This document shows positions 3,313 to 56,900 of a DNA stretch of 64,000 nucleotides, in pieces. A program made the translations under genes and the position numbers. Below the pieces are notes generated by a model. That model was not told the origin of the DNA, ran no database searches, and worked only from the letters and a program-made list of their open reading frames with translations. Source of the DNA: a virus; IMG/VR virus record IMGVR_UViG_3300033182_000489, positions 3,945 to 67,944 of that record; one strand, 5' to 3'. Each line of letters starts with the position of its first letter. The stretch's first letter is position 1.

Positions 3313-3621
3313 TCACTCGCTCGCGTACAACGCATCGAGGATCTGAGCCTTCGTCCATCCCCCCTGGAGTTCCACACCAGCGTCCTCGGCAGCAGCGATC
3401 AACTGTGCCTTCGTGTTCGCCAAGGTCAACTTCTCCGCTTCCGTCTCGGGAGCAGGGGCAGGGGCAGGAGCAGCCTCAACGGCGGGTTCCGGTGCGGGAG
3501 CAGGGGCGGGTGCTGCTTCCGGCTCGGGGGCAGGCACAGGCTTGTGCATGACGGGGGTTCCGCCACCAGTAGGGGGACGACGGACGGCCCGCTGGATGTT
3601 CTTGAGGTTGATGATTGCCAT
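3313..3621 (-). CDS. Pro/Ala linker protein with C-terminal HeH (Rho-N/LEM-like) motif
   Basis: PAPEP repeats then TKAQLIAAAEDAGVELQGGWTKAQILDAL. Confidence 0.7.
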   Translation of the reverse strand: MAIINLKNIQRAVRRPPTGGGTPVMHKPVPAPEPEAAPAPAPAPEPAVEAAPAPAPAPETEAEKLTLANTKAQLIAAAEDAGVELQGGWTKAQILDALYASE

Positions 3622-3638
3622 GTGAGGTTCCTCTCGGT

Positions 3639-4010
3639 TCAAGGTTTCGGGACTTCCAGCCATACCCCGGCTCGGACTTCCTTCTTCTGGATGTTGTCGT
3701 CCATCGTCGTCTCGTCCACCTTCGGCCACTGGAAGTAGTCGGGGTGCTTCTGAGCGAGAGCGGTCAAACGCTCCTGTGACACCTGGTCCATGGTGGGGAG
3801 CAGGTCGAAGTACTGGCGTCGAGCCACGGGGTTGTTGCGGACGGTCCACAGAATGAACTCGTCCTCCAGCACAGCAGGGTTGCCGGGGTACTTGACCCGC
3901 ACCACGCGCCCATCCGGCAGCGTCTCAAGAGTGGTCGGACCGCCTTGCAGTCCGTTCACCTGCGCTGCGCCGAACGTCCAGAATCCGTAGGGCTGTGCTT
4001 GCTGTGCCAT
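3639..4010 (-). CDS. Hypothetical protein
   Basis: GGAGG RBS; class B motif upstream. Confidence 0.7.
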   Translation of the reverse strand: MAQQAQPYGFWTFGAAQVNGLQGGPTTLETLPDGRVVRVKYPGNPAVLEDEFILWTVRNNPVARRQYFDLLPTMDQVSQERLTALAQKHPDYFQWPKVDETTMDDNIQKKEVRAGVWLEVPKP

Positions 4011-4704: not shown

Positions 4705-5367
4705 ATGAACCACAAGGCGATCTGCTTCCTGGACACTGAAACCACCGGCCTCGACCCGCAGAAGGCCGAGGTCATCGAGGTCGCGGTGATCCGCCGTGAT
4801 CCTGATGGCACCGAGACTCGGTTCCACACGCTGATCAAGCCTGAGCGCATCGAGGACGCCCACCCGAAGGCGCTGGAGGTCAACGGCTACGCTGATGATC
4901 CCTCACGCTGGGACGACGCCCCGACGATGGCCGAGGTCGGCGACCAGATCGCGGACATCACGAGAAACTCGGTCATCTGCGGCCACAACGTCTCGTTCGA
5001 CGAGGCCATGATCTCGGCCAACTTCAAGCGGTCCGGGGTCAAGCGCCGCATCCCGTACCACAAGATCGACACCGTGACGCTGGCCTGGGAGCACCTGGTC
5101 CCCATGGGACTGGAGCGCATGAGCATGGATCGCATCCGGGAGTTCCTCGGTTGGTCGAAGGAGGGGGCCCACACGGCGATGAAGGACGCCGAGGACGCCA
5201 TGAGCCTCTACGACCTGCTGTGCAGGATCACCCCGGAGAGGCGGGAAGACCTGCGCCGCTACCTGACCATCAAGAAGATCCACGACGAGTCCGAGGAGGA
5301 GACGCCCTGGATCTGGGACGACTACCACTCCCCTCCACAGGGTGATCAGGGCAAGTCGGAGGAGTAG
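4705..5367 (+). CDS. DEDDh 3'-5' exonuclease (DnaQ/epsilon-like)
   Basis: LDTETTGL, GHNVSFD, IDT, AHTAMKDA. Confidence 0.93.
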   Translation: MNHKAICFLDTETTGLDPQKAEVIEVAVIRRDPDGTETRFHTLIKPERIEDAHPKALEVNGYADDPSRWDDAPTMAEVGDQIADITRNSVICGHNVSFDEAMISANFKRSGVKRRIPYHKIDTVTLAWEHLVPMGLERMSMDRIREFLGWSKEGAHTAMKDAEDAMSLYDLLCRITPERREDLRRYLTIKKIHDESEEETPWIWDDYHSPPQGDQGKSEE

Positions 5368-5485
5368 GTGTCCGCAAGCACCCCTGTCGTGCGTCTCCGG
5401 GATAGCACACACCACAGGAGTGCCCATGGGGTCTTCCTGCGGTCCCCTGACCCCGATGGTGAGGGCGGCATCTACTGGTGGTCGC

Positions 5486-5499
5486 GGTAGGGAGCCTAT
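5486..5499 (+). promoter_or_regulatory. Class B motif
   Basis: GGTAG GGAGC CTAT upstream of ORF 5539. Confidence 0.6.
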
Positions 5500-5538
5500 G
5501 GGCGATGGTTAGAGTGAACCCTCAACCCGGAGCCTCTC

Positions 5539-5751
5539 ATGCCTTCTCGTTCCACCACTTCTGAGTACCAGCCCTCTCCCCCCTTCAACCGTCTGCGCGT
5601 CAAGGGCAGCGGATCCAGCGAGAGCGCCATGCCCGCCAACGGTGTGACGGTGGCCAACACCACCAACACCGTGCGCCCCAACGCTTGCTGTGCGCCGACC
5701 TCGGCCACCACCGGGAACATGCCGAAGATCACGCCGCGCTTCTCGGCGTAG
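5539..5751 (+). CDS. Small hypothetical protein
   Basis: GGAG RBS, class B motif upstream, terminator downstream. Confidence 0.6.
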   Translation: MPSRSTTSEYQPSPPFNRLRVKGSGSSESAMPANGVTVANTTNTVRPNACCAPTSATTGNMPKITPRFSA

Positions 5752-5781
5752 CCTTTCCGACTCCTGCTCCCTGCGGAGTCA

Positions 5782-5810
5782 GAAGCCCTCGCCAATCCGG
5801 CGGGGGCTTC
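5782..5810. terminator. Hairpin terminator between convergent genes
   Basis: GAAGCCCTCGCC-AATCC-GGCGGGGGCTTC. Confidence 0.65.
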
Positions 5811-5816
5811 CTCGTT

Positions 5817-6164
5817 TTAGGACAGGGCAGAAATCAGGTCGGTCTTCTTCATGGACGAGTAGCCCTTGATCCCACGCTCCTTCGCGAGGGCCTTCAACTC
5901 GGTGACCTTCATCTTGGTCAGGTCCACCGCCTCGACGACCTCCTCCACGGCGTCCTCGACGGCTTCGACAGCCTCGACGACTTCCTGCTTGATCTCCTCC
6001 ACGGTCTCCTTGACCTCGGCGACATCCTCAGCGATGCGCTCGGGCGGCTTCTTGCCGAGGCGTCGGAACGCCTTGACCAGGGTGGCCCATGGGGTGCAGG
6101 TCTTCTTCCGGGAGGAGCCACGCTCGTGGCCCTTGACCATCTTCTTGGCGATGCGCTTGTTCAT
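5817..6164 (-). CDS. Rho termination factor N-terminal (HeH) domain protein
   Basis: DLTKMKVTELKALAKERGIKGYSSMKKTDLISAL after basic N-terminus and acidic E/V/A stretch. Confidence 0.85.
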   Translation of the reverse strand: MNKRIAKKMVKGHERGSSRKKTCTPWATLVKAFRRLGKKPPERIAEDVAEVKETVEEIKQEVVEAVEAVEDAVEEVVEAVDLTKMKVTELKALAKERGIKGYSSMKKTDLISALS

Positions 6165-7180
6165 CAGTCTTCCTCGTGCTCCTGCATGGCCTGGATCAGC
6201 AGACCTCGCGCAACAGCGTTCAATGGGTCCGAGGCATGACGGATTTCACTGACCTCGATGGGGAATCGCTTCCGCTTCTTCTCAAACACCTGCTCAAAGA
6301 AGGGCAGGAAGTTGCCAGCGAGGGACGTGCCGCCGCTGACCACGATGGGAATCGGCTTCGGCAGGGCGAAGCGGTCCTTGATCTTCATGAACTCGCGGGC
6401 CGTCTGGTCCACGCAGTACTCGATCAGGCTCTTGTAGTAGAGGGCGAGGGCTTCTTCCTCACGGGACTTCGGGTCCATGAGGTCGATGCCCTTCTCCTTG
6501 AGGGCGCAGATGCGGCTCTGGGTGCTGCCGGTCGCCTTCGCGGCCCCAGCGTCGATCCAGTCGCCACCACGCGCCACGGAGAAGCACAGCCCCTCCACGC
6601 CCGAGACGGCGAGAGCGAGGTTGCACATGCCGGACCCGAACGAGATGCCCAGACCGGAGAAGCCGTCGGCGGCAGTCTCGGCGTAGACGATGGCCATGGC
6701 CTCGTTGCCAGCGTAGGCGTCGAACCCGCACTCGCTCACGATGCGCTCAAACACCCCTCGGTGGTAGACGACATCGCGGTCGGCATCCACGGGAGCGGCG
6801 GGCACGGAGAAATAGCAGGCTTCGTCCTCGGAGACGGGGTCACCGAGGACGTTCTTGATCATCACGCCGAGGACATCGAGAGCATCCATCTCACCCGCCG
6901 AGATCAAGCCCTGCGACAGTGGACGCCGGGCCTCGCGACCGAAGACGTTGGCCATCTCCATGGCGGCATCTCCGACGACGATGATCCCGTCCTCTCCGTG
7001 GTCAATGAAGTTGACTCCAGACAACTTGAGCATTCGCTTCGCCCCTGCGTCGAGGTCCAGGAACGCATCACGCATCCGGCTGGTCTCAACCGACCCATCC
7101 GTGGTGCGCCTGGCCGAGACGATGTTCATGGTGCCAATGTCCAGACCGACACCCAGGGGGGCTTGCTTCTTCGTTGCCAT
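6164..7180 (-). CDS. Actin-like ATPase, volactin-like
   Basis: Phosphate-1 GLDIGTMNI, connect-1 NEAMA, phosphate-2 GISFGSGMCN, RGGDWID, adenosine VSGGTS, DPLNAVARG. Confidence 0.88.
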   Translation of the reverse strand: MATKKQAPLGVGLDIGTMNIVSARRTTDGSVETSRMRDAFLDLDAGAKRMLKLSGVNFIDHGEDGIIVVGDAAMEMANVFGREARRPLSQGLISAGEMDALDVLGVMIKNVLGDPVSEDEACYFSVPAAPVDADRDVVYHRGVFERIVSECGFDAYAGNEAMAIVYAETAADGFSGLGISFGSGMCNLALAVSGVEGLCFSVARGGDWIDAGAAKATGSTQSRICALKEKGIDLMDPKSREEEALALYYKSLIEYCVDQTAREFMKIKDRFALPKPIPIVVSGGTSLAGNFLPFFEQVFEKKRKRFPIEVSEIRHASDPLNAVARGLLIQAMQEHEED

Positions 7181-7189
7181 GTGATTCTC

Positions 7190-7855
7190 CTACGACTTCT
7201 TCTTGCGGAGGGCCTTGAGGGCGGATGCAGCGTCATCCAGCCCACCAGCATCAGCAGAGGAGTCGGACTTGACTGTGAGGTTTTCTGTGTCAGACCTGAC
7301 AATACCCGTGGGAATGAACAAGGGCTCCTCGGGCCCGTTGACCACGAGGTCTGTAGGTGACGAGGCTGAGGATGCGGGGGCGATCTGGGCCGTCCGCAGG
7401 GCTTGTGACACGGCCTGCTGGACCACCTCCTCGATGCCCGCCGTAGGAGCGGCGCTGGGCGCGGCGTTCGCCAGGAGCGTCTGCATCTGCGAGGTCATAG
7501 CAGCGATGGCCTGTGCAGCGGCCTCGGTGGCGGCCTTCTCGACCATCGCCTGAGCCTGCTCCGCTGTGACCCCCTCCTTGACCACTTCTTTGGTCGTGTG
7601 GTGGACCGTGTTGTGGCGAGGCACCTTGCTCGGACGGGACAGCCCAACCGTGTGGATCTTCGGCTTGTTTGGGGGGTCTTGAGACACTCGGCACCTCTGG
7701 CTGGAGGATACCCGCACCTTCCCCAGCCTTATGAGGGTCTGGAGACAGGCGGATCGCTTGAAGTCCTCCTGTTCGATCCACACCGGACCTGGCCCGACGG
7801 TGATCCCGAGGTCTTCGATGGGGGTTGGTTTGTCGGCATCCACTCGCAACGGCAT
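7190..7855 (-). CDS. Hypothetical protein (candidate actin partner)
   Basis: Coupled upstream of the actin gene; Ala-rich linker, C-terminal LDDAASALKALRKKKS. Confidence 0.65.
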   Translation of the reverse strand: MPLRVDADKPTPIEDLGITVGPGPVWIEQEDFKRSACLQTLIRLGKVRVSSSQRCRVSQDPPNKPKIHTVGLSRPSKVPRHNTVHHTTKEVVKEGVTAEQAQAMVEKAATEAAAQAIAAMTSQMQTLLANAAPSAAPTAGIEEVVQQAVSQALRTAQIAPASSASSPTDLVVNGPEEPLFIPTGIVRSDTENLTVKSDSSADAGGLDDAASALKALRKKKS

Positions 7856-8412
7856 CAAAACAGGTCTCCTTGAGTGAGGGCCAGTTGGACGATCTCCTCG
7901 GCCAACTCCTCCATCACCCTTACCCGCCCCTTCTTCACACCTCGCTCGATGAAGGTGTACCGAAGAAAACCGGGGTGGATCCATGCGTCGGCTGTGGTCA
8001 TTGGAGCCGAACGGAAGATCACGGTCCCTTCCTGGGTCACCAGAGGCACCGTCTTGACCTTCGGCTGCATGAGCCAGGTCATCGGGAAGGGCTTCGACGC
8101 ACCCTTCTCCCCCGGCTTCGCCATGTGCTGCTCGGCTGTGGGCCAGTCCGAGACGATCTCGATCTGCTTGTTGGAGATCCGGTACGAGAAGGACTCCACG
8201 AACTTGCGGCTGTCAGGGATCGGCACCGGCTTGCCTCGGCCCCGGAGGCCAGCCGTCTTCGCCATGTCCTTCATGATCTCCTTCTTCACGGAGTCGAGGA
8301 TGATCTCGGCGGCCTTCCTGAGCATGGTCGGCGGCATCTGGACTGCGTTGGGCGCATCCCGCTTGAGCAGGGGCTTCCCGTAGACGCCCCGGAGCCGCAT
8401 GTTCTTACTCAC
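7855..8412 (-). CDS. Hypothetical protein, possibly tail-completion/neck
   Basis: Overlapping start/stop; WIHPG..TFIERGV pattern. Confidence 0.6.
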   Translation of the reverse strand: MSKNMRLRGVYGKPLLKRDAPNAVQMPPTMLRKAAEIILDSVKKEIMKDMAKTAGLRGRGKPVPIPDSRKFVESFSYRISNKQIEIVSDWPTAEQHMAKPGEKGASKPFPMTWLMQPKVKTVPLVTQEGTVIFRSAPMTTADAWIHPGFLRYTFIERGVKKGRVRVMEELAEEIVQLALTQGDLF

Positions 8413-8719
8413 CGAACACCTTCCATAGGGTCACACCCAGCGAGATCACCGACAGGACGGATCCCATGATGGCCAGGCGCTTGCTGAAACGCGCCTGGGT
8501 GTAGGCGTCACCGAGGTTGTCCCGCTTGATCTTGTAGTCGAAGTGGTCCATCGGAGTCAGGCCGGGGACGCGCTCAAAGAAGTCTTTGCACTCCCGCTGC
8601 TCAAACACGTCGTCGTCCATGAGGCGGTGCTGATACCAGAGGCACACCCCTGCGTATTTCTGCTCGTGGTGGTTGTCAGGGTACTTCGACCACAGCCCAC
8701 ATCGTCCGCATCTCGCCAT
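8405..8719 (-). CDS. Cys-rich protein with C-terminal transmembrane helix
   Basis: CGRC..C..C and hydrophobic LAIMGSVLSVISLGVTLW. Confidence 0.65.
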   Translation of the reverse strand: MARCGRCGLWSKYPDNHHEQKYAGVCLWYQHRLMDDDVFEQRECKDFFERVPGLTPMDHFDYKIKRDNLGDAYTQARFSKRLAIMGSVLSVISLGVTLWKVFGE

Positions 8720-8762
8720 GACGGCCTCCTACAGGGAGATCACCATAGGAAAGGTAGCGGGA

Positions 8763-9089
8763 TCAGTGCTCGCCTTCGCCCAGGATGGCGAACGTGGGAG
8801 TCCCTTCCCCCACCCATGCGCCCGACGTGTTGAAGCCGAACCAGTCACGAGCCGCGTCGAAGTCGCAGTCCAGCCACTTCATGATGGCCTCCAGGCACTT
8901 GTCGATGTCGTAGACGGCGACGTGGACGCGAGCCTGGCGGGGCCAACTGTCGTTGGGGTCATCCGTGACCCCGATCAGGGCAGGGTCGTAGACCTCACGA
9001 GGCTCCAGGAGCATCGCGTTGGGATTCAGTGTCTCCAACTCCCGTAGGACTTCCTCGACGCTCACGACCCGCTCCTTGCTATGCGCCAT
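8763..9089 (-). CDS. Phage hypothetical protein
   Basis: DPALIG..AVYD..ARDWFGFNTSGAWVGEGTPTF, a pattern recalled from phage hypothetical proteins. Confidence 0.75.
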   Translation of the reverse strand: MAHSKERVVSVEEVLRELETLNPNAMLLEPREVYDPALIGVTDDPNDSWPRQARVHVAVYDIDKCLEAIMKWLDCDFDAARDWFGFNTSGAWVGEGTPTFAILGEGEH

Positions 9090-9096
9090 CCTACCC

Positions 9097-10047
9097 TCAG
9101 CACCACAACCGACACACCTGTGTGCCCTTGTCGAGCACCTGGAGGAGATGTGCGATGGCGAACCCGCTCTTGATCTCGTCGCCGGAGTACCTGAGCACGG
9201 TGTAGCCCATGTCGTACATCGCCAACGCCGTTGCTTCGTCGTCCGCCATCTTCACGGCGGGGTCGCCGTGGACGGCTCCTGGACCGTGGAACGCCACGCC
9301 GTCGCACAGCACGATAGCCTTGCTTGACCCCATGACGACCTTGATGTCGGCTTCCCGGCGGACCTTCTTCCCACCGACAGTCACGGTCATCCACTCGTTA
9401 CGACCACACGGCTCGACACCGCAGTCCCGCATCTGCTCCACGAACAGCCGCTCCAGACCGCTGCCGAGGCGGGCCTTCTCCCGGTTCTTGCGGGCAGTCC
9501 TCACCCTCCGCTTCCTCACCCTCCGCTTGTACTTGTCCTCGCTGCCGACCACCTGCACGACGAGTTCTCGCGCTGCGGTGTAGTCGAGTCCTGTGGCCAT
9601 GAGGTCACGGACACCACCACCGCTGGCGATGATGTCCGCCGCACTCTGTAGATGTTCCACGGGGTCAATCTTGGGCTTGTAGCCCACAGGCCACCGCGCC
9701 TTGCTGTTCCCGCACTTGGAGTGGGTGCGAGGGTCAGGCGTCTTGTCGAAGCGAAGTGCCTCGTACTTCCGCTTGCTCATGGTCTGCCGCAGCCGCTCAC
9801 ACCGAGGACATCGCTTGGAGTCCTTCAACCGCTTGTCGGTGATCTCAAACAGGTCACCGCACTTCCGGCACCGCAGGGTCGCCCGGTACTCGGCTCGCCA
9901 TGCGTGCCATCGTGCCTTGAAGGCTCGGTGTGCCTCGTCGGGGTTGTGCCTCTCCGAGAGGTGTAGACCGAGGGCGTTGTAGTTGCGGCTCACCTTCCCG
10001 CAGACCTCGCATGGTCCGAGGAAGGGAAGGGTATGGTCGTCCTGCAT
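9097..10047 (-). CDS. Zn-finger + Vsr/DUF559-like endonuclease (free-standing homing endonuclease candidate)
   Basis: C2H2 finger CEVC..HLSERH, CRKC..CPRC, C-terminal ADI..CDGVAFHG..D..GYTVLRY; ATG 10047 chosen by homology with the 24740 gene start. Confidence 0.75.
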   Translation of the reverse strand: MQDDHTLPFLGPCEVCGKVSRNYNALGLHLSERHNPDEAHRAFKARWHAWRAEYRATLRCRKCGDLFEITDKRLKDSKRCPRCERLRQTMSKRKYEALRFDKTPDPRTHSKCGNSKARWPVGYKPKIDPVEHLQSAADIIASGGGVRDLMATGLDYTAARELVVQVVGSEDKYKRRVRKRRVRTARKNREKARLGSGLERLFVEQMRDCGVEPCGRNEWMTVTVGGKKVRREADIKVVMGSSKAIVLCDGVAFHGPGAVHGDPAVKMADDEATALAMYDMGYTVLRYSGDEIKSGFAIAHLLQVLDKGTQVCRLWC

Positions 10048-10135
10048 GGTGAACCTCTGGTACAGGTTTGCTTTGCAGGAGGTCGGGTGTTGCAGCACTC
10101 GGCCTCCACCCTTCTGGGATCATAGGATCACTACC
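10027..10135 (-). repeat. Endonuclease-associated leader element, copy 1 (includes class B motif 10122-10135)
   Basis: Co-linear with 24720-24832; see findings. Confidence 0.75.
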
Positions 10136-10140
10136 GGGGG

Positions 10141-12255
10141 CTACTTCTTGCCGCCTCCAGCACCATACTGAATATGCTGCCACACGGGAGTCCTGCCCCT
10201 TTGTTCCCTTCCATCGGGAATCTTGGCAGCCTCGGACATCATCGGGGTTGCTTGATGCGAGTAGCCAACCGGGTACGGCTCGGCGTCCTCGCACGGTGCG
10301 TCTTCGGGGTTGCTGTAGCGGGTCTCAGGCCACGGGAGGCGTTCCAACTCGCCCATAGGCACCCGGTAGCGGATGTCGCCCGTGTCCAGGTAGCCGATGG
10401 CGAACGCTTGCTGGAGGATCAACCCACGCACCTGGGTCCGGCGCACAGGGCCTACAGCGTACCGCTCACCGTTCTGCTTCACGATGAAGTCCCGCTGGGA
10501 GAGCATCGGGGTCGGCCCGATCCAGACCTCGTACTGGTGCTCCAGTCGTCGTCCGTTGGGGGTCTGGGTCACGCGCCGGTCTGCGTCGTCCGGGGCGATG
10601 ATGATGTCGATGGGCCCCTCGTAGCCTCCCACGAACCCGGTGCCGTAGCACTCCAGACAGGTGTTGGAAGGCTGCTGGCTGTACTCTTGCAGCCGCTCGT
10701 CCCACACGCAGTCGCACTTGACCCCGGTGACCCTGCGGAGGAACAACTTCACACGCTCCCCACCCTGCTCCAGAATCCAGCGGTTCCGGCGCACAGCCTC
10801 ACGCCAGATGTAGTCGAACCGCTCGCTGTTCATCGGCGAGATGGGCTCGGTGTACCCCAGCGGAGTCTCGATCAGTCCGGTCGGACTCTCGCCCGTGGGG
10901 TCAATGGCGACCGTGGTGAGGCGGTAGAAGACCTTGTGTCGCTGGTCCAGGGTGTTGACCAGGGTGTCTCCCCGCTTCCAGTAGTAGTTGATGGTGACCA
11001 CGCTCGTCGCCGTGGGGGCGGTGAACGTGACCCACGACTCGGTGCTCGGATCCCACACCGGGGTCGTGTCGAGCGTGACCTGGCCGTTGGGGCCGAACAC
11101 GGCGGCCACGGGGGTCCGTGATCCGTCGATGTAGACCTCGACGTCGAAGGGTGAGTCAGCGGCGACGGCGTTCCCGGTGCGCTTGACCATGGGCCGATTT
11201 CTCGTCTGGAGCCGCCACACGTCCTTCTGGTTGGGGGCAGAGCCTCGGTAGATCCAGCCTGTGTCCCATGGGATCACCTCGCCGGTCGTCTCCACGATGT
11301 CCGTGCGGTCCCGGTAGAAGTTCGTCATCACCGGGATGCGGTTGACCCGGAAGTACGGGCCGCGCTCTCCGGTGTCGCTGCGGTAGACGTTGACCCCGAG
11401 GATCTGCCACTCGCTGTTGGACTTCCCCTCGCAGGGGACGCCTGTGCCGCCGGTCGTCTGAGAGTCGCTGAGGTCGAACGCCGTGGTGTTCGTCGTGGTG
11501 ATGGTGATCCCATCACCCATCGTCCCGTCCTGGAACGCGGCGATCAGCACGATGTCGCCGGACACCGTGGCCGACACGAAGCCCAGGTCGTTGGTGCTGT
11601 CGTTGATGGCAGCAGCGATGCTCTCGGCGGTGTTGAAGTTGGTCGGACCGACGCCGAAGTTCATCCCGCCCGCTGTCCGGGCCGCCTCGGCGGTCAGTAC
11701 CTGTCCGCCGATGGTCAGCGTGTCTGCGTCGAGGCCACCAGTGAAGGTGCTCCCGGATGCCGTGATCCTGTCGCTGTCGGACGACAGTGTGATCCCATCG
11801 CCGACCTCGCCCGGCGTGTCCGCCGTGAGAGAAATCACATTGAGCGCCGCCGTGGCTGAGGCGATGCCCCATGCTCCGACCGATCCGCTGTTGATGGCGT
11901 TGGCGATGTTGGCGGCTACGACTGCTGTGTCTCCAGAGGAGCCGTCGAACTCGTCGGGGCCGGGCGCTGCCGCCACCGACGTGAGCACGACACCGCCAAC
12001 CTCAATGGTGTCCCCCACAGCGATGGGAGCACCAGAGAGGGTGAACGTGGCCGTGGAGGCGGTGAGGACATCAGGGATGCCCGTCACCGTGATGGACACC
12101 GTGGCCCTCGTGGAGGGCGTAGACGGACCTGTCATCAGGGTCGAGGGGTCATCCCAACGGATGTCCGCATCGGACCCATGGAAAGAGGACATCGCCGTGC
12201 CGTTGGCCGGGGGCCACGGGAATGAACCCGATACTGGTTCCCAGCCAGCCGACAT
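10141..12255 (-). CDS. Virion structural protein (neck/head-completion-like)
   Basis: T/G/A-rich beta repeats; C-terminal WILEQGGERVKLFLRR..CDC..CLECYGTGFVGGY. Confidence 0.7.
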   Translation of the reverse strand: MSAGWEPVSGSFPWPPANGTAMSSFHGSDADIRWDDPSTLMTGPSTPSTRATVSITVTGIPDVLTASTATFTLSGAPIAVGDTIEVGGVVLTSVAAAPGPDEFDGSSGDTAVVAANIANAINSGSVGAWGIASATAALNVISLTADTPGEVGDGITLSSDSDRITASGSTFTGGLDADTLTIGGQVLTAEAARTAGGMNFGVGPTNFNTAESIAAAINDSTNDLGFVSATVSGDIVLIAAFQDGTMGDGITITTTNTTAFDLSDSQTTGGTGVPCEGKSNSEWQILGVNVYRSDTGERGPYFRVNRIPVMTNFYRDRTDIVETTGEVIPWDTGWIYRGSAPNQKDVWRLQTRNRPMVKRTGNAVAADSPFDVEVYIDGSRTPVAAVFGPNGQVTLDTTPVWDPSTESWVTFTAPTATSVVTINYYWKRGDTLVNTLDQRHKVFYRLTTVAIDPTGESPTGLIETPLGYTEPISPMNSERFDYIWREAVRRNRWILEQGGERVKLFLRRVTGVKCDCVWDERLQEYSQQPSNTCLECYGTGFVGGYEGPIDIIIAPDDADRRVTQTPNGRRLEHQYEVWIGPTPMLSQRDFIVKQNGERYAVGPVRRTQVRGLILQQAFAIGYLDTGDIRYRVPMGELERLPWPETRYSNPEDAPCEDAEPYPVGYSHQATPMMSEAAKIPDGREQRGRTPVWQHIQYGAGGGKK

Positions 12256-12256
12256 A

Positions 12257-12565
12257 TCAGTCCTCCTTGTCGATGATCACCTTCCCCTCGGGGGTGACAC
12301 GCCACTGAGCCCCCTCGGGGATGCCGAGGCGCGTGCCTTCCTGTCGGAGCAGGGTGTTCGCCTGGTTGTTCATCGCCGAGATCTCGTCAACGAGGGCGGC
12401 CTTGCGGACCTCCATGCGACCGATCTCCGCGACGAAGTGGTCGCTCCGGGCGCGGAACTGCTGGATGGCAGTCCACACTTCCTGGGAGACAGCCATCTCG
12501 TTGGTGGTCTCAGCCTTCGGCTTGGAGGTCTTCTTGCGGGTCTTGCGGGTTCGTGGGGTAGCCAT
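12257..12565 (-). CDS. Hypothetical coiled-coil protein
   Basis: AAGGAG RBS, 102 aa. Confidence 0.7.
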   Translation of the reverse strand: MATPRTRKTRKKTSKPKAETTNEMAVSQEVWTAIQQFRARSDHFVAEIGRMEVRKAALVDEISAMNNQANTLLRQEGTRLGIPEGAQWRVTPEGKVIIDKED

Positions 12566-12613
12566 GAGAAATGTCTCCTTTGGGGTTCCTCACACACTAC
12601 CCCGCCGATGCCG

Positions 12614-13453
12614 CTACTCCACCGCAGCCGCAGCGATCTGCATGGCTTCCCAATCCTGCTCCCACCCACGCGGACGCTTGCCGAGACGCCCGATGTAGAG
12701 CACCTCAGCCTTCGCGGGGTTGAACGAGCGGAAGGGGAAGCCCTCGGCGCACTGGTCCTGGGACGCACGCTGCTGGGCGAGGATGGAGAAGTAGAAGCCG
12801 TTGGCTCCGACCGCAGCCACGAAGACGTAGCCCGAGTAGTAGTTGAGGCTCCGCATCTGGCCACGAGCCTCACCGCGAGCGATGTACTCGGCAGCAATCT
12901 GCTTCTGCTCCTTGGGCGGCTTACGGCTGGGGTCAGACTTGTAGATGATCTCGATGGGGCCGTAGCCCTTCATCTTGGAGTAGTCGGTCGCCTTGTACAT
13001 GCCGACGTAGCGGGAACGCTGGGCGTTGGGGAACACGACCTCCTCGCTGCCGAACGCGACGGTGACCGGGGAGCCCTTGCTGCCGTCGCCTTCGTCCACG
13101 ACGATGCCGATGCGGCGGTCGTTGTCCCGGTAGACCTCGATGCCGTCGCCCTTGTGCTTCTCAGCCTTGATGCAGACGCGGTAGCCCTTCTGCCAGCGGG
13201 GGCCGGGCTTCTTCGACTTCTCGCCACCGACGCGGATGCCCAGACCCTTGATGAAGCCTTCGACCTCCTTCACGGGGATGGGGTTGCCCTCTTGAGAGGA
13301 GAGGATGTAGGACGCGAACACACCAGCATCGCCAGCGGCCTCCTTGTCGAACGCGGCCTTCTCCAGAAGGACGGTACGCTCGGAGGAGTTCTCGGGGAGC
13401 AGGTAGGCCAGCCGGGTCATGGCTGCGCGATGGGCATCGGTGAGTGCGGGCAT
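12614..13453 (-). CDS. Hypothetical protein (possible internal head protein)
   Basis: 279 aa, class B motif upstream. Confidence 0.7.
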   Translation of the reverse strand: MPALTDAHRAAMTRLAYLLPENSSERTVLLEKAAFDKEAAGDAGVFASYILSSQEGNPIPVKEVEGFIKGLGIRVGGEKSKKPGPRWQKGYRVCIKAEKHKGDGIEVYRDNDRRIGIVVDEGDGSKGSPVTVAFGSEEVVFPNAQRSRYVGMYKATDYSKMKGYGPIEIIYKSDPSRKPPKEQKQIAAEYIARGEARGQMRSLNYYSGYVFVAAVGANGFYFSILAQQRASQDQCAEGFPFRSFNPAKAEVLYIGRLGKRPRGWEQDWEAMQIAAAAVE

Positions 13454-13487
13454 GATGAAGTCTCCAGAAGATACCTGTGAGGTTCGT

Positions 13488-13501
13488 ATAGACCCACTAC
13501 C
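13488..13501 (-). promoter_or_regulatory. Class B motif
   Basis: GGTAG TGGGT CTAT. Confidence 0.6.
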
Positions 13502-13811
13502 GAGACGGGTGGGGGTGCCCTTGTAGGTGGTTGGTGATCTCGTCCAGGCTCCTGTTCACCGAGTCCACGTCACTGGCGATTTCTTCCAGCAGTCGGGTCT
13601 GCTCGGTGAGCGCCTGTTGCATCTCCTCTTGCTTCTCGACCAGCCCGGCCTCGGCGGGTTCCACCAGCCGGTACTGAGGCGGGGATTCGGGGGCGACGAC
13701 GGCGTCGGAGATCAGGGAGGTCTTGTAGAGGTTGAGAGACAGCACCAACAGGAGCACGATCCCCAGGGCGGCGCAGACCTTACCTCTCCAGAAGGATAGA
13801 GCGGATCTCAT
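13497..13811 (-). CDS. Membrane-anchored coiled-coil protein (lysis/spanin candidate)
   Basis: N-terminal TM helix followed by heptad-rich tail. Confidence 0.6.
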   Translation of the reverse strand: MRSALSFWRGKVCAALGIVLLLVLSLNLYKTSLISDAVVAPESPPQYRLVEPAEAGLVEKQEEMQQALTEQTRLLEEIASDVDSVNRSLDEITNHLQGHPHPSR

Positions 13812-23702: not shown

Positions 23703-24740
23703 CTACGTCTTGGGGGGCCTCCAGCCCACAGGATCAGCCACCCACGGGTGATTGACCCCCTCACCACGACACAGGGGTGAGTCCTCTGGCGTCCAGTGGC
23801 ACCGCGCCTTCCCGCGCTTCGACCGCTTGAGTTTGTACTCGGCCTTGAGGGCTTCGGAGCGACTGTAGTACGGGCCGTAGCAGGCTCGGGCGACCCACGG
23901 ACGGTGCTTGGAAGTCCACTTTCCTCCTCCCTTCTTGCCCATCTTGCCGTTCGCGTAGCGCCCGTTGTGCTCGCGGAGCCGTCGTGCGGGGCAAGTGGTC
24001 ATCCCGACATAGTAGTAGCCGGGGAGGACTCGACCCGTCTTTTTGGACACCCGCTTCTGCTCTGACTGGATCACATAGACGTAGAACGGCTTGACCCACT
24101 TCTCTTTCGTCTTTGTGTTGAGGTTCTTCGGGTCGTCCATGTTCTCCTCGATGATCCTGTACTCCGCAGCGACCGCTTCGGCTTCCGTGTCACACTCCAC
24201 CAGTACCCGCCATGTGGCGGTGCTCCAGTCCTGACCGTTGAGGGCCTTCACATGCGTCCCATGCCGTGCGGCGTGACGGTGCTGGTGGAACCGCCGCTTC
24301 GGGTTGTTCGACTTGCCGATGTAGTAGCAGCCGTCCGCGAAGTCGATGCGGTACACCTGTGGACGCTTCTCGGCCTCCCTTCTGGCTCTCTTGGCGTCCT
24401 TCCCACGCTCGACGGTGGCACGAACCCGGTCAGGGTGTTTGCGCCTGTACTCCCTCTGGTGCTCCCTCATGTAGTCGCGCCGCTTGACGCGAATCCGCTC
24501 TTTGTTCGCTTCCCTGTACGCCCGACCATAGGCAGCCGTCCGAGCCTTATTCGCTTCCCTGTAGGCTTTCAGACAAGCCTTGCAGTAGACCTGCAAGCCA
24601 TCAGAAGTTGTGCGGTTGCGGTTGTACTCGGAGAGGGGTTTGTCCTCGCCGCACTTGCGACAGGTCTTCGTCGTCGGGGCAGCGGGTTCGTACTCGACCC
24701 CGAACAGATCGAACACATCAAGGGTATGGTCATCCAGCAT
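23703..24740 (-). CDS. Zn-finger + tandem GIY-YIG endonuclease
   Basis: KTCRKC..YCKAC; VYRI..YYIGKS..RRFHQH; YVYVIQS..YVGMT..RRLREHNG..WTSKHRPW..ALKAE (Slx1/UPF0213-like). Confidence 0.88.
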   Translation of the reverse strand: MLDDHTLDVFDLFGVEYEPAAPTTKTCRKCGEDKPLSEYNRNRTTSDGLQVYCKACLKAYREANKARTAAYGRAYREANKERIRVKRRDYMREHQREYRRKHPDRVRATVERGKDAKRARREAEKRPQVYRIDFADGCYYIGKSNNPKRRFHQHRHAARHGTHVKALNGQDWSTATWRVLVECDTEAEAVAAEYRIIEENMDDPKNLNTKTKEKWVKPFYVYVIQSEQKRVSKKTGRVLPGYYYVGMTTCPARRLREHNGRYANGKMGKKGGGKWTSKHRPWVARACYGPYYSRSEALKAEYKLKRSKRGKARCHWTPEDSPLCRGEGVNHPWVADPVGWRPPKT

Positions 24741-53910: not shown

Positions 53911-56900
53911 TCACGGGCACGGATCGTCGTCTGCGGGGTCTTCCGGCGGGTACGGAGCCAGCGGGATGTTAGCACTCGGCAGGGCAGCCCGGCTCTTGAT
54001 CATCGGCTTGCCTTCCAGACGGTAGCGGTCGGAGGCTGCGTAGCCCTTGCCGTAGTCGGTGGGGCTGATGATCCCGTCGAGAGCGTAGCCGTGGTCGCAG
54101 TCCAGAGACTCGCCGTACACAGCGTTGGTCACGATGACCATCTGCACCTCGTCGCCGTAGGAGCGGGTCACGTTGCCCGTGAACGCATCCTCGTAGCCGT
54201 TGCGGACCAGGTAGGCCCGACCGACCAGAGCGGCACCCTTCAACACGGGATCATCACCCTCGCTGAATCCGCCAGCGGTGAAGTCCACAGGGCCGCCAGC
54301 AGCCTCGGGAGACACGACGTAGGCCGAGCCACCGCCACGGTAGAGGCGGAACTTCTTGACCCCATCGGGAGCCGTCGTGGCGTTGTAGGCGGTGTACTGG
54401 AGGATGGCACCGTCGGCCATGCCCATGACCCCACCAGGACCACTGAGGCGCGTGTTCTCCTGCCCGTCTGCCGAGAAGGTCGTCACAGCCTGCGTGGCCT
54501 GATCCCCGCCGCCCGAGCGGACCTCGTAGGCCACACCCTTGCGGAGGGGGTCTTCACCGAGGAAGTCCGAGTCGTTGACGAGGATGCCGAGCGGCAGGCG
54601 GTCCGTCATGCCGGTGAGGCGCATCGGAGTCGGTGCGTTGTACACCTGCTTGCCGTTGGCGGGGACGTTCTCCGAGCCGGACAGTGCCGCCTGACTCACG
54701 ATGGAGAAGTTGGTGGCGTAGAGCGTGCCGTAGGGGGCGTTCTCCAGCAGCCTGACCCCAGTGAGGGTGTAGGGCGTAGCCGTCGCCGGGCTGAGGCGGA
54801 CGTCGGTGTTCGCACCCGTGTGTCCGGGCATCCGAGCGTGGATGTGGCACACAGGTCCAGCAGCCACGGCGTACACGCCGATGGCGTGCTTCGTGCCGTC
54901 GTCGGCGTTGATGGCCGTCGCAAGGTTCTGTGTAGCCTCCACAGCATCCGCGCCCACGGTCCAGTTGGCCCCGTACTCAAAGGTAGCCGTGTCGGTGCCG
55001 CGCGAGATCACGACCTTCTGGTCGGTCAGGGCTGCGAAGTCGGAAATCAGGACGCTGATGGAGGCGTACCCCGCCGAAGCAGGCTGCCCTTCCGTGAGAG
55101 CACGGGGGCGGGGCTGCCACGGGTTCTCCGTTCCAGACTCAGGGAGGCGAGTGCCGGGGGAGGTCAGGACGCCGGGATCAGTCGGGGTGCCAGCGTAGAC
55201 AGGGCCACCCATCTTGCCTGTGCCCATCGTGGTCCAGAAATCGACCGAGGCCAGCACCTCAAGGGAGCGGGCGTTGGGGATCTCGGGGATCTGGTCGTTG
55301 TCCGTGTCGTACTGCTGGAGCGGGGTGTTGACCATGTTCGCACTGGCCGTGGGAACCTGCCCGTACCTGTGCTGGTAGTCAGCCGTCTGGAGGGTCGCCC
55401 CGTCACGGGTCATGTAGGGGTCGCCCTGGTACACCGTCCGGGTGAAGGCCGAGTAGCCTTCAACGCCACCCATGGCAGCAGGGATGATCATCCGGCAGTC
55501 GCCGTAGAGCCCGTCGGCGGGGGCGTAGGCCAGGTTGGCGTCGGTGCGGAGCATGACGTAGTTGTTCTTGTTGATGAAGCCCTCGGCGAAGCCGAAGACC
55601 GCGACCTCGACGACGTACTCGTAGGCGGCGAAGGTCGAAGTGGCTGGATCCCAGCCGGGGATCATCTCCAGGTTGAGTGCTTCCTCGGGGACCACATAGG
55701 TGTGCGCGTCGTGCCCAGCGAGCACGTCCGCCGCCCCATCCTTGACGATGAACAGCGTCTGCTTGTCGGCGTCGGTGCGGAGCAGGTTCGTGGCGAAGGA
55801 GCCTGTGGTCTTCGGAGTGAAGCCCTCGTCGGTCCAGGCCGAGCCTCTGGCCGCGTAGTCGGCGGCCTCGTAGACGGCGTAGACCCGTGCCGCGCCGAGG
55901 TAGGGCGGGAACTGGATGCCACGCAGAGGCTTGTTGATGTCCGAGGACCGTGCGTTCACGTCGTCGTAGAGGCGTCCCTGGAAGCCGACGGCAGCGCCAC
56001 CGTATGCGCCGTAGTCCAGAGCCGTAGCGGCTGCCGTGGTGACCAACAGGGGCGCGTCCGTGACCACAGGTGCCGTGTTCGACGAGCCACCCACGACGTA
56101 CCGGACGAGGTCCGTCACCACGTCGGAGTCACCAAACAGGTGGTTGATGCCCCGGAAGGGTCCGGTGAGGCCCGCCGTGGCCCGGATGGGGATGTCCTGC
56201 CGTCCGAAGCGGGGCATGTACTCGGCAGGGAGGGCGAAGATCTTGTCCTGCTTGAACAGACCTGAGCCGCCCATGACTGCGCCTCCACCGTGGGAGGGGT
56301 CATAGAAGGCTGGAATCTGGTCTGCCGAAGCCGTGCGAAGGGGCCACGCCATGTCCATCTGCTGGAAGGGGCGGAAGACAACCGACTTCGACCCCTCGTC
56401 CACAAAGAGTTCTGCTTCGCGGAGGGTCTCAAAGTTGTAGCGACCCTCGCCGTAGGCCGGTGCGTTGGGGGCATGGCCGCCGAGGCTGGGAAGACGGTTC
56501 CACGTCGGCACCGCCTGGGCGGGGTAGTAGTACTCGTTCTCCGGGACACCTGTCCGAGCGCGGAACTCGGTGCTGTCGGGGTCGATGTTCTCAGGGGCCT
56601 CACGCAGCACCGTGAAGCCTGCCCCCGCAGGGTCGATGACCGTGAAGCGGGAGAGGGCATCAGCCACTCGCGCCATCGCTCCACGGGAGGGTCCGTAGAG
56701 GAGGCTGGTGTCCAGCACCATCTGCCCGAGGAAGGAGGTGCCGAAGCCGTTCCATGGGTTCTCCGTCCCGCCGGTCAGCCCTTCCAGGTCGGTGAGACAG
56801 ATCGCGATGGCCGGGTAGGCGTTGCCGGGGTTGTCCTCGGTGTTCATGTACCGGGTGCGGAACTCCACCTCCACGGTGGCCCCTACGGTCAACGCACCGC

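Follow-up and report, generated by a model that had tools for sequence, protein, structure and literature searches.

What would a bacterial virus do with an actin of its own? The question is raised by a stretch of 64,000 nucleotides (the window) that is part of a 67.9-kb IMG/VR virus record (IMGVR_UViG_3300033182_000489) and encodes an actin-like protein between two smaller genes. A first-pass annotation, made from the letters of the sequence alone, had described these as a phage-encoded, volactin-like actin in an operon with a candidate adaptor and a Rho-N protein. We consider it somewhat better than an even bet, at a probability of roughly 55%, that this huge-phage actin forms filaments, that the protein encoded directly upstream is its adaptor, and that the pair has a late role with virion parts or packaged DNA. 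The three open reading frames (ORFs) are tightly packed on the minus strand:

6164 to 7180, minus strand: Volactin-family (PF25216) actin-like ATPase, 338 residues
7190 to 7855, minus strand: partner gene ('UP'), upstream of the actin, 221 residues
5817 to 6164, minus strand: accessory Rho_N/SAP (HeH) protein, downstream of the actin, 115 residues

Family, fold, and constraint of the actin

The actin matches the Pfam family Volactin (PF25216) over profile positions 3-321 of 321 with an E-value of 2e-76 and 258 bits (cut-off 35), and a six-frame search of the whole record with this family scored 257.7 bits. None of the other Pfam families, MreB_Mbl (PF06723) included, matched the protein at E <= 0.01, and the PHROGs contain no family for it. 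Pfam thus bears out the earlier proposal that the protein fits volactin better than MreB, FtsA, or ParM. An alignment of 61 family sequences shows no variation at D14, G16, T17, G182, G184, G283, and G284 and hardly any at E160. The nucleotide motifs are intact, and all those quoted by the first-pass annotation are present; its wording of a complete set of actin-fold ATPase motifs goes too far by one residue, the phosphate-2 aspartate, which is replaced by Ser180.

An AlphaFold2 model built from the same alignment reached a predicted local distance difference test (pLDDT) score of 94.9 and a predicted template modelling score of 0.92. The top Foldseek matches of this model in the PDB are MreB/Mbl, MamK (5ljv_A, template modelling (TM) scores 0.73/0.76), and BeeR. 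Compared with 48,161 chains by VIA-align, the model is best matched by the BeeR filament (Z 27.5, root-mean-square deviation (rmsd) 3.5, 303 residues aligned); the other filament formers include MreB (Z 26.2), crenactin (Z 24.5), actin and FtsA (both Z 23.2), ParM (Z 22.9), and MamK (Z 20.9). The modelled fold therefore favours filament formers, by a margin that is not wide. The sequence profile of the family separates them from Hsp70 more sharply than the fold does: of the 51 PDB chains that it reaches within E <= 1, which include MamK (E 6e-14), BeeR (3e-9), MreB (7e-7), and FtsA (4e-6), none is an Hsp70. A grouping with Hsp70- or kinase-like members, which the first-pass annotation had named as a refutation, was not found, as the profile gives no Hsp70 match at this threshold and the Hsp70 BiP stands below BeeR and MreB by fold, if only by a little. 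The identity to MamK, MreB, and BeeR is about 17-19%, the single actin sequence has no match in the PDB at E <= 0.01, and the viral structures of BFVD contain no close relative (best TM 0.63 at 12% identity, mostly Hsp70s). Judged from profile and model together, the protein is a true nucleotide-binding member of the volactin family with an actin fold.

The actin is also the most constrained gene of its block and under strong purifying selection. Compared with three related loci (L004, L007, and L008), its ratios of nonsynonymous to synonymous substitution rates (dN/dS) are 0.041, 0.080, and 0.056, respectively. The values are 0.186 and 0.249 for the partner (synonymous divergence is saturated for L008), 0.15-0.25 for the next gene upstream, g185, and 0.14-0.26 for the Rho_N gene. 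In all 36 loci that have the actin, g185, and a further upstream gene, g704, the actin is the most conserved of the three. Among 14 differences within the actin gene in marine metagenome contigs 12 are synonymous; the other two are D119N and a stop, S30*, which was seen in a single contig at a depth of 3.2 and may be an error. Inteins usually occupy conserved, important sites. In the three actin relatives that were checked (P0122, P0125, and P0130) an intein, recognised by Intein_splicing plus HNH_3 or LAGLIDADG_3, splits the protein right after the phosphate-2 motif, at a point corresponding to about residue 187-206 of the window actin (window 6563-6622). A number of the 150 listed actin representatives are about 700 residues long with two matched stretches.

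The upstream partner

The partner begins with a small N-terminal domain and a Pro-rich linker, continues with a helical stretch that is variable, and closes with a P.FIP..IV motif and a basic tail. In the alignment of its C-terminal 60 residues the P.FIP..IV motif is followed, after about 25 residues, by LDDAA.ALKA.RKKK, and the window protein ends in ...LDDAASALKALRKKKS. P65, P178, P182, and L213 are invariant in the partner alignment. The protein has no Pfam, PHROG, or PDB sequence or profile match, and these searches detected no DNA-binding domain in it. A stretch of membrane type was not found either: the window partner has no 19-residue window at a mean Kyte-Doolittle hydropathy of 1.6, and the same holds for 29 of 31 phage partners, the two exceptions lying at residues 1-19 of possibly over-extended ORFs. 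Of the basic amphipathic tail that had been described, the basic character is clear, and the amphipathicity does not exceed that of shuffled sequences.

This protein diverges fast, and tblastn found homologs in only 19 of 55 related phage loci. A hidden Markov model (HMM) of the tail found a match in 52 of 56 phage loci (the window included), each time ahead of the actin and in the same orientation; 24 of the 56 had served as training rows. Three of the remaining loci hold no upstream DNA, so the count among those that do is 52 of 53, the single miss being the distant locus L003 (LR756511). In 47 loci the partner directly precedes the actin, and in five a single ORF has been inserted between the two. 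The candidate adaptor of the first-pass annotation is therefore a conserved neighbour of the actin. No fusion of this partner to the actin was seen, the partner and tail HMMs having no match among the 270 proteins retrieved.

At the DNA level, the stop codon of g185 overlaps the ATG of the partner gene (TGATG), which represents translational coupling, and the partner stop is separated from the actin ATG by 9 nucleotides with GGAGAA in the gap. The partner ORF is open up to 7984. The start at 7855, already chosen by the first-pass annotation, is to be preferred because its ATG overlaps the g185 stop and because an identical protein of 221 residues is present in public gene calls.

Small ORFs are also found in front of two distant actins. 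The ORFs at L003:5762-5992 (LR756511.1; ...WAIPEFKSGEKVKFGKKA) and at L120:3569-3982 (Desulfosarcina variabilis; ...VFIPS...LSKLAKQL) each contain an 'IP' motif and finish in a stretch that is basic or helical. The 'IP' motif may thus be older than the phage clade.

Whether the two halves of the partner vary together with their neighbours was assessed by a mirror-tree comparison of 18 loci (partial Mantel correlations, 2000 permutations). The actin and the partner tail are correlated at 0.69 given g185 (reached in 0 of 2000 permutations), and g185 and the N-terminal domain of the partner at 0.57 given the actin (0 of 2000), the cross terms being 0.09 and 0.08. Based on these sequence distances the co-variation is a hint, no more.

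Cellular relatives and a parallel gene pair

A genome scan with one genome per prokaryote species and an alignment of 14 rows as query yielded 439 relatives of the actin, of which the best 80 were kept. Four of these (52-70% identity) are encoded on short contigs. Phage synteny is seen in three of them, so that they are probably of phage origin and were binned into metagenome-assembled genomes. The other 76 have 41-47% identity, are mostly titled Planctomycetota, and are located on contigs of up to 7.19 Mb; one of them is on the complete chromosome of Desulfosarcina variabilis. As far as the best 80 of 439 matches tell, the nearest relatives of known cellular origin are therefore bacterial chromosomal genes, mostly of Planctomycetota, and going by these sequences 'volactin-like' is not to be taken as 'haloarchaeal'. 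A true MreB (439-499 bits) is encoded as well in all four such genomes tested.

In phylogenetic trees, which include rows of unknown origin and no VolA sequence, the true MreBs are divided from the volactin-family rows by a branch with 100% support. When rooted on MreB, the trees split 35 phage rows from 21 rows of known cellular origin with a Shimodaira-Hasegawa-type branch support (SH-aLRT) of 90.8, which is not decisive. The clade next to the phage rows is of the Desulfosarcina type, followed by the Planctomycetota clade, and LR756511 is placed elsewhere. Given the rows of unknown origin and the sampling of only the best 80 of 439 genome matches, the donor cannot be named.

The cellular actins have a partner of their own. 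In 75 of the 76 cellular loci (L061-L136, e.g. L080:3099-4990) the ORF directly preceding the actin is recognised by an HMM of the cellular tail, for which 20 of the loci were training rows. It encodes a coiled-coil protein of 200-270 residues that ends in ...GGIAANLARLKKLKGGG, the tail following the pattern ...DF.GLFKD....LESNMDNIEVKQK.GGGIAANLARLKKLKGGG. None of the 22 cellular partners scanned has a 19-residue window at a mean hydropathy of 1.6. The layout of the tail is alike in phages and cells: a hydrophobic motif, a short strand-like stretch, a Gly, and a helix with a basic end. Thus, judged from gene order and tail sequences, the placing of a tailed partner gene ahead of a subfamily actin recurs, and among the indirect evidence this recurrence speaks best for a physical link between the two proteins. 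On visual inspection, P0154, P0174, P0179, P0202, P0205, P0221, and P0236 are fusions in which the actin carries the N-terminal domain of the cellular partner.

The surrounding gene block

The pair is embedded in a block of further genes and is followed by a hairpin behind the Rho_N gene:

10141 to 12255, minus strand: g704, 704 residues, Cys-rich C-terminal part, function unknown; first gene of the conserved block
7855 to 8412, minus strand: g185, probable neck or head-tail joining protein, 185 residues
5782 to 5810, no strand assigned: GC-rich hairpin just after the Rho_N stop, 12-pair stem with 9 G-C pairs

Homologs of g185 were found by tblastn in 39 of 55 related phage loci. Three weak leads agree in pointing to a probable neck or head-tail joining protein. 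The atlas features of g185 lead to 'HK97 gp10 family' clusters (0.95), one of 25 members matches phrog_5 (tail completion or Neck1) at E 0.0065, and the best VIA match of the model (pLDDT 70) is the SaPI1 neck chain 9mu2_P (Z 7.9, rmsd 6.2, 103 residues aligned), with a lead of 2.5 Z over the row that follows. Foldseek with the model gave nothing at E <= 0.001, Pfam no family on the 25 members, and the PDB profile search nothing meaningful. Homologs of g704 are present in 46 of 55 loci (tblastn), in 44 of them upstream of the actin, and its alignment contains 48 invariant columns. Only PHROGs of unknown function match g704, and a profile search of the PDB gave no meaningful match.

The conserved order is g704, g185, partner, actin, and then, in 47 loci and at variable distance, a protein of about 410 residues. 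Neither the window nor the whole record encodes this last protein, which has no useful Pfam or PHROG match, the single PHROG row (E 0.0058) coming without a matched stretch. Because the slot downstream of the actin varies among loci, the core consists of g704, g185, the partner, and the actin.

In the window this slot is occupied by the Rho_N protein, whose gene is coupled to the actin, as had been noted, by an overlap of the actin stop with its ATG (TGATG). Pfam finds Rho_N (E 2.3e-12, 47 bits, cut-off 24.9) and SAP (E 1.6e-5) in this protein, both from residue 81, and it comprises a basic N-terminus, an acidic repeat, and a C-terminal HeH domain. Its proposed part in a common operon system did not hold up, since homologs are restricted to 4 of 55 loci by tblastn (L004, L007, L008, and L009). 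Among 29 ORFs located first downstream of the actin, Pfam found Rho_N in three, GIY-YIG, an IS605 OrfB helix-turn-helix, a PAPS reductase, and DUF7768 in one each, and nothing in 22. By this distribution the Rho_N gene is a cassette that has been added locally in the closest relatives and lies outside the core. The copy at 5817-6164 is the only Rho_N match in the whole 67.9-kb record. The hairpin behind it is likely the end of the transcription unit; its T-run is on the plus strand, so that on the minus strand it is only a hairpin.

A direct repeat of five copies of about 44 nucleotides (61-75% identity) at 5916-6034 is a coding repeat that specifies the acidic, (V/A)EE-rich part of the Rho_N protein. 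The region 4800-13600 contains no intergenic array of iterated repeats, and its sole family with more than two copies is inside this coding repeat. An Ala/Pro-rich protein of 178 residues (window 3313-3849, minus strand) weakly matches phrog_3281 with its end (residues 145-178, E 8e-4), a PHROG that is also matched by the HeH domain of the Rho_N protein.

The ORFs inserted between partner and actin in L034, L039, and L049 are homologs of an endonuclease-like window gene (9097-10098, minus strand, 333 residues) that has weak PHROG matches and resembles the inserted ORFs in its C-terminus. Homologs of this gene are found at differing places in L016, L023, L029, L034, L039, and L048, and it behaves like a mobile homing gene.

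The phages and their distribution

That the locus is phage-encoded, as had been claimed, is borne out by the IMG/VR virus record itself and by the tailed-phage genes found in the window with Pfam and PHROG: Baseplate_J, an endolysin with PG_binding_1, an NAD-dependent ligase, PolA, a DnaB-type helicase, a primase, and a SNF2 helicase. An endolysin that binds peptidoglycan speaks for a host among the bacteria. The completeness of the record is estimated by CheckV at 16%. The records of five relatives are 199-381 kb long and rated 45-72% complete, and dividing length by completeness implies genomes of about 440-530 kb. The record of one relative is classed as a provirus.

Among 50,697 records of deposited phages only two encode an actin relative by tblastn, and both are uncultured huge phages: LR745208.1 (485 kb) with 61% and LR756511.1 (locus L003; 595 kb) with 32% identity. 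A megablast of 25 kb of the window against the deposited phages gave no match. In IMG/VR, 53 loci encode actin relatives with 49-96% identity. A word-indexed protein search with the actin found 2831 proteins at E <= 0.001, the best 120 of which all carry PF25216 and are named only 'hypothetical protein'; an exhaustive search of 50%-identity representatives found 1070 at E <= 0.001, of which 334 also pass E <= 1e-30. DNA nearly identical to that of the window, defined as a share of sampled words of at least 0.22, occurs in 18 DNA runs of at least nine studies (marine, aquatic, estuary, vent, and sponge metagenomes), two of these runs being covered by a comparison at the contig level.

One IMG/VR record of 297 kb (G006) contains two actin copies on opposite strands (L006 and L010; 88% and 80% identical to the window actin). 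This may be a real duplication or an assembly that joins two related phages. Elsewhere in the window there is an ORF of 1794 residues (53911-59295, minus strand) that has no Pfam family and one weak PHROG match. A gene of 345 residues (23703-24740, minus strand) that adjoins the baseplate genes contains two GIY-YIG stretches and endonuclease VII/HNH-type PHROG matches; from these matches it is probably another homing endonuclease.

Possible function of the actin and its partner

We infer that the actin would most likely polymerise with ATP to form dynamic filaments in the infected cell, for which the filaments of volactin itself are a precedent. The C-terminal tail of the partner would dock on the actin, so that the partner, as an adaptor, would steer the filament, and its small N-terminal domain would hold the cargo. 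Because the pair directly follows, and is coupled in translation to, what is probably a neck gene, a late action in placing or moving virion parts or packaged DNA is favoured over an early role in replication. A more detailed version of this idea, which is speculative and which we would not expect to hold in full, pictures the partner as a tether with two ends. The tail would sit in volactin filaments, and the N-terminal domain, which co-varies with g185, would grip nascent virions, giving an actin-based assembly line or transport track for very large particles. The module would then go back to an ancient cytoskeletal unit of two bacterial genes, which Planctomycetota and Desulfosarcina still have on their chromosomes and which phages would have captured and re-aimed.

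Several observations weigh against filaments steered by an adaptor in a late role. The modelled fold by itself leaves room for a non-polymerising ATPase, given that the nucleotide-binding domain of the Hsp70 BiP is at rank 4 in VIA-align (Z 24.1). The phosphate-2 aspartate, which is also found in MreB, ParM, and actin, is exchanged for Ser180 in the window protein and for Ser in at least 90% of the aligned family, the profile alignment placing the family's 'iSfGaG' opposite 'VDIGAG' of MamK. The helical hydrophobic moment of the partner tail is 0.31 against a mean of 0.25 for shuffled sequences and is reached by 31% of 2000 shuffles. The correlation of the actin with the tail falls to 0.21 (160 of 2000 permutations) when the five closest relatives are removed, the term for g185 and the N-terminal domain staying at 0.55 (0 of 2000). 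In addition, each half of the partner adjoins the gene that it tracks, and the co-variation would equally be expected from linkage and phage recombination. Homology between the phage and the Planctomycetota tails was considered and rejected, as hhalign in register gave E 0.026 at a probability of 1.9%, so that only the resemblance in layout is kept; each tail HMM finds none of the loci of the other group. The leads that make g185 a probable neck protein, on which the timing depends, are weak. Matches to RNA libraries consist of a contig of 196 nucleotides in one RNA library and one of 236 nucleotides in a library that is only guessed to be of RNA, and DNA may be present in such libraries. Finally, the lack of Tubulin and Tubulin_2 matches in all five relatives' records, which counts in favour of the actin reading, comes from incomplete records.

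Three other explanations have to be compared with the adaptor-steered filament. The filament or the partner could act on the envelope or the divisome of the host, for example to block division or to enlarge the cell, and not on phage cargo. Such a take-over of the host would agree with the part of volactin in cell-shape transitions of Haloferax (PMC10869688). The nearest cellular relatives of the phage actin are chromosomal genes in bacteria that also keep a true MreB (4/4 genomes tested), which points to a cell-biological role of their own, and huge particles may plausibly need a remodelled host. However, 29 of the 31 phage partners have no hydrophobic window, the gene is placed in a block with a probable neck gene and not among early genes, and Pfam and PHROG found no envelope-related domain in the block. 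We regard this explanation as unlikely, although it deserves to be kept in mind. It is rather improbable that the system resembles ParMRC or AlpAC, in which case the partner would bind a site on the phage DNA and the filament would move or partition genomes, e.g. in a carrier state or at a replication site. The layout of an actin gene beside a small adaptor gene with a possible actin-docking tail would fit, AlpC/AlpA does likewise for the DNA of prophage CGP3 (excerpts of PMC4446434 and PMC5539076), and the closest relatives have added a protein of the DNA-binding Rho_N/SAP type behind the actin. But neither a DNA-binding domain in the partner (Pfam, PHROG, PDB profile) nor an intergenic repeat array in 4800-13600 was found, 51 of the 55 related loci lack the Rho_N gene, and the huge phages look lytic, apart from the one relative whose record is classed as a provirus.

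The actin might finally have no cytoskeletal function. It could assist, as a chaperone or assembly ATPase, in the joining of necks or tails, or be packaged itself, in either case without long filaments. The conserved order of g704, the probable neck gene g185, partner, actin, and the protein of about 410 residues (47 loci) would suit a virion-assembly factor, as would the structural closeness of the Hsp70 nucleotide-binding domain and the co-variation of the partner's N-terminal domain with g185. This is the least probable of the explanations: the sequence profiles reach filament formers only, with no Hsp70 at E <= 1, the top fold matches are filament structures, and the actin has no substrate-binding domain.

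Comparison with known systems

Volactin (VolA, HVO_2015) of Haloferax volcanii, described in 2024, forms dynamic filaments in vivo and has a role in the transition from rods to disks (excerpts of PMC10869688). The phage actin belongs to the same Pfam family, which it matches end to end, and has the actin fold. However, VolA is encoded on an archaeal chromosome, and the actin described here by a phage of a bacterium with the nearest known cellular relatives being bacterial, so that the likeness to VolA is one of family. A partner with a tail of the phage type is not described for VolA in the excerpts of PMC10869688, and 'phage' and 'virus' do not occur in the main text of that paper. Neither do phages or viruses appear in the titles and abstract starts of the volactin literature among the matches listed.

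The first-pass annotation had named the tubulin PhuZ as the precedent, which is incomplete: an actin with an adaptor, AlpC and AlpA, has already been characterised from prophage CGP3 of Corynebacterium glutamicum, and AlpA binds DNA sites (alpS) (excerpts of PMC4446434 and PMC5539076). As a phage-borne actin and adaptor serving the intracellular logistics of the virus itself, this is, from those excerpts, the closest analogue in the probable way of working. The differences are that AlpC is regarded as another actin family, that AlpA binds alpS whereas no DNA-binding domain and no repeat array were found here, and that CGP3 is a small temperate prophage and the phages described here are huge (about 440-530 kb). 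The system is therefore a phage actin with a candidate adaptor that is from a different actin family than AlpC and is found in huge phages.

ParMRC is similar in having an actin-like ATPase beside a small adaptor gene, here kept next to the actin and adjacent in 47 loci, and the tail of ParR docks on ParM. ParM is a distant relative in fold (Z 19-23). In contrast to ParMRC, there are no centromere-like repeats here, and the adaptor gene is upstream instead of downstream of the actin and within a block of phage structural genes. MamK, MreB, and BeeR are the best solved structural and profile relatives, from which the phage protein is set apart by its low identity and by the Ser in place of the phosphate-2 aspartate. 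The chromosomal pairs, mostly of Planctomycetota, share the tail layout but differ in the N-terminal domains of their partners and occur in genomes that also hold MreB; no description of these pairs was found in the literature searched. The PhuZ tubulin spindle is the cytoskeletal polymer of the nucleus-forming jumbo phages (excerpts of PMC7950403). It is alike in being encoded by very large phages, with a tubulin fold there and an actin fold here.

The main texts of six works on jumbo and huge phages (PMC13282480, PMC7824862, PMC9123017, PMC7162821, 10.1101/2025.02.27.640493, and 10.64898/2026.10.24.761521) contain no relevant passage on actin or MreB, although their supplements could list such genes. 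The literature on huge phages and 'actin-like' gave no phage actin of the volactin kind, and 'PF25216', 'volactin-like', and 'phage actin' are in no paper among the matches listed.

Implications

To our knowledge, the tubulin PhuZ is the only characterised cytoskeleton of very large phages, and we know of no characterised phage actin other than AlpC, which is from a small prophage. The genes described here form a large clade of actins that are under strong constraint and accompanied by a constant partner, in huge phages known from uncultured material. Should the filaments prove real, they would be a second, independent example of bacterial viruses organising the cytoplasm of their hosts, and the two proteins of 338 and 221 residues would be a tractable pair for studying how actins of the volactin type are steered. 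The parallel chromosomal pair, found mostly in Planctomycetota, points to an unstudied cytoskeletal module of bacteria.

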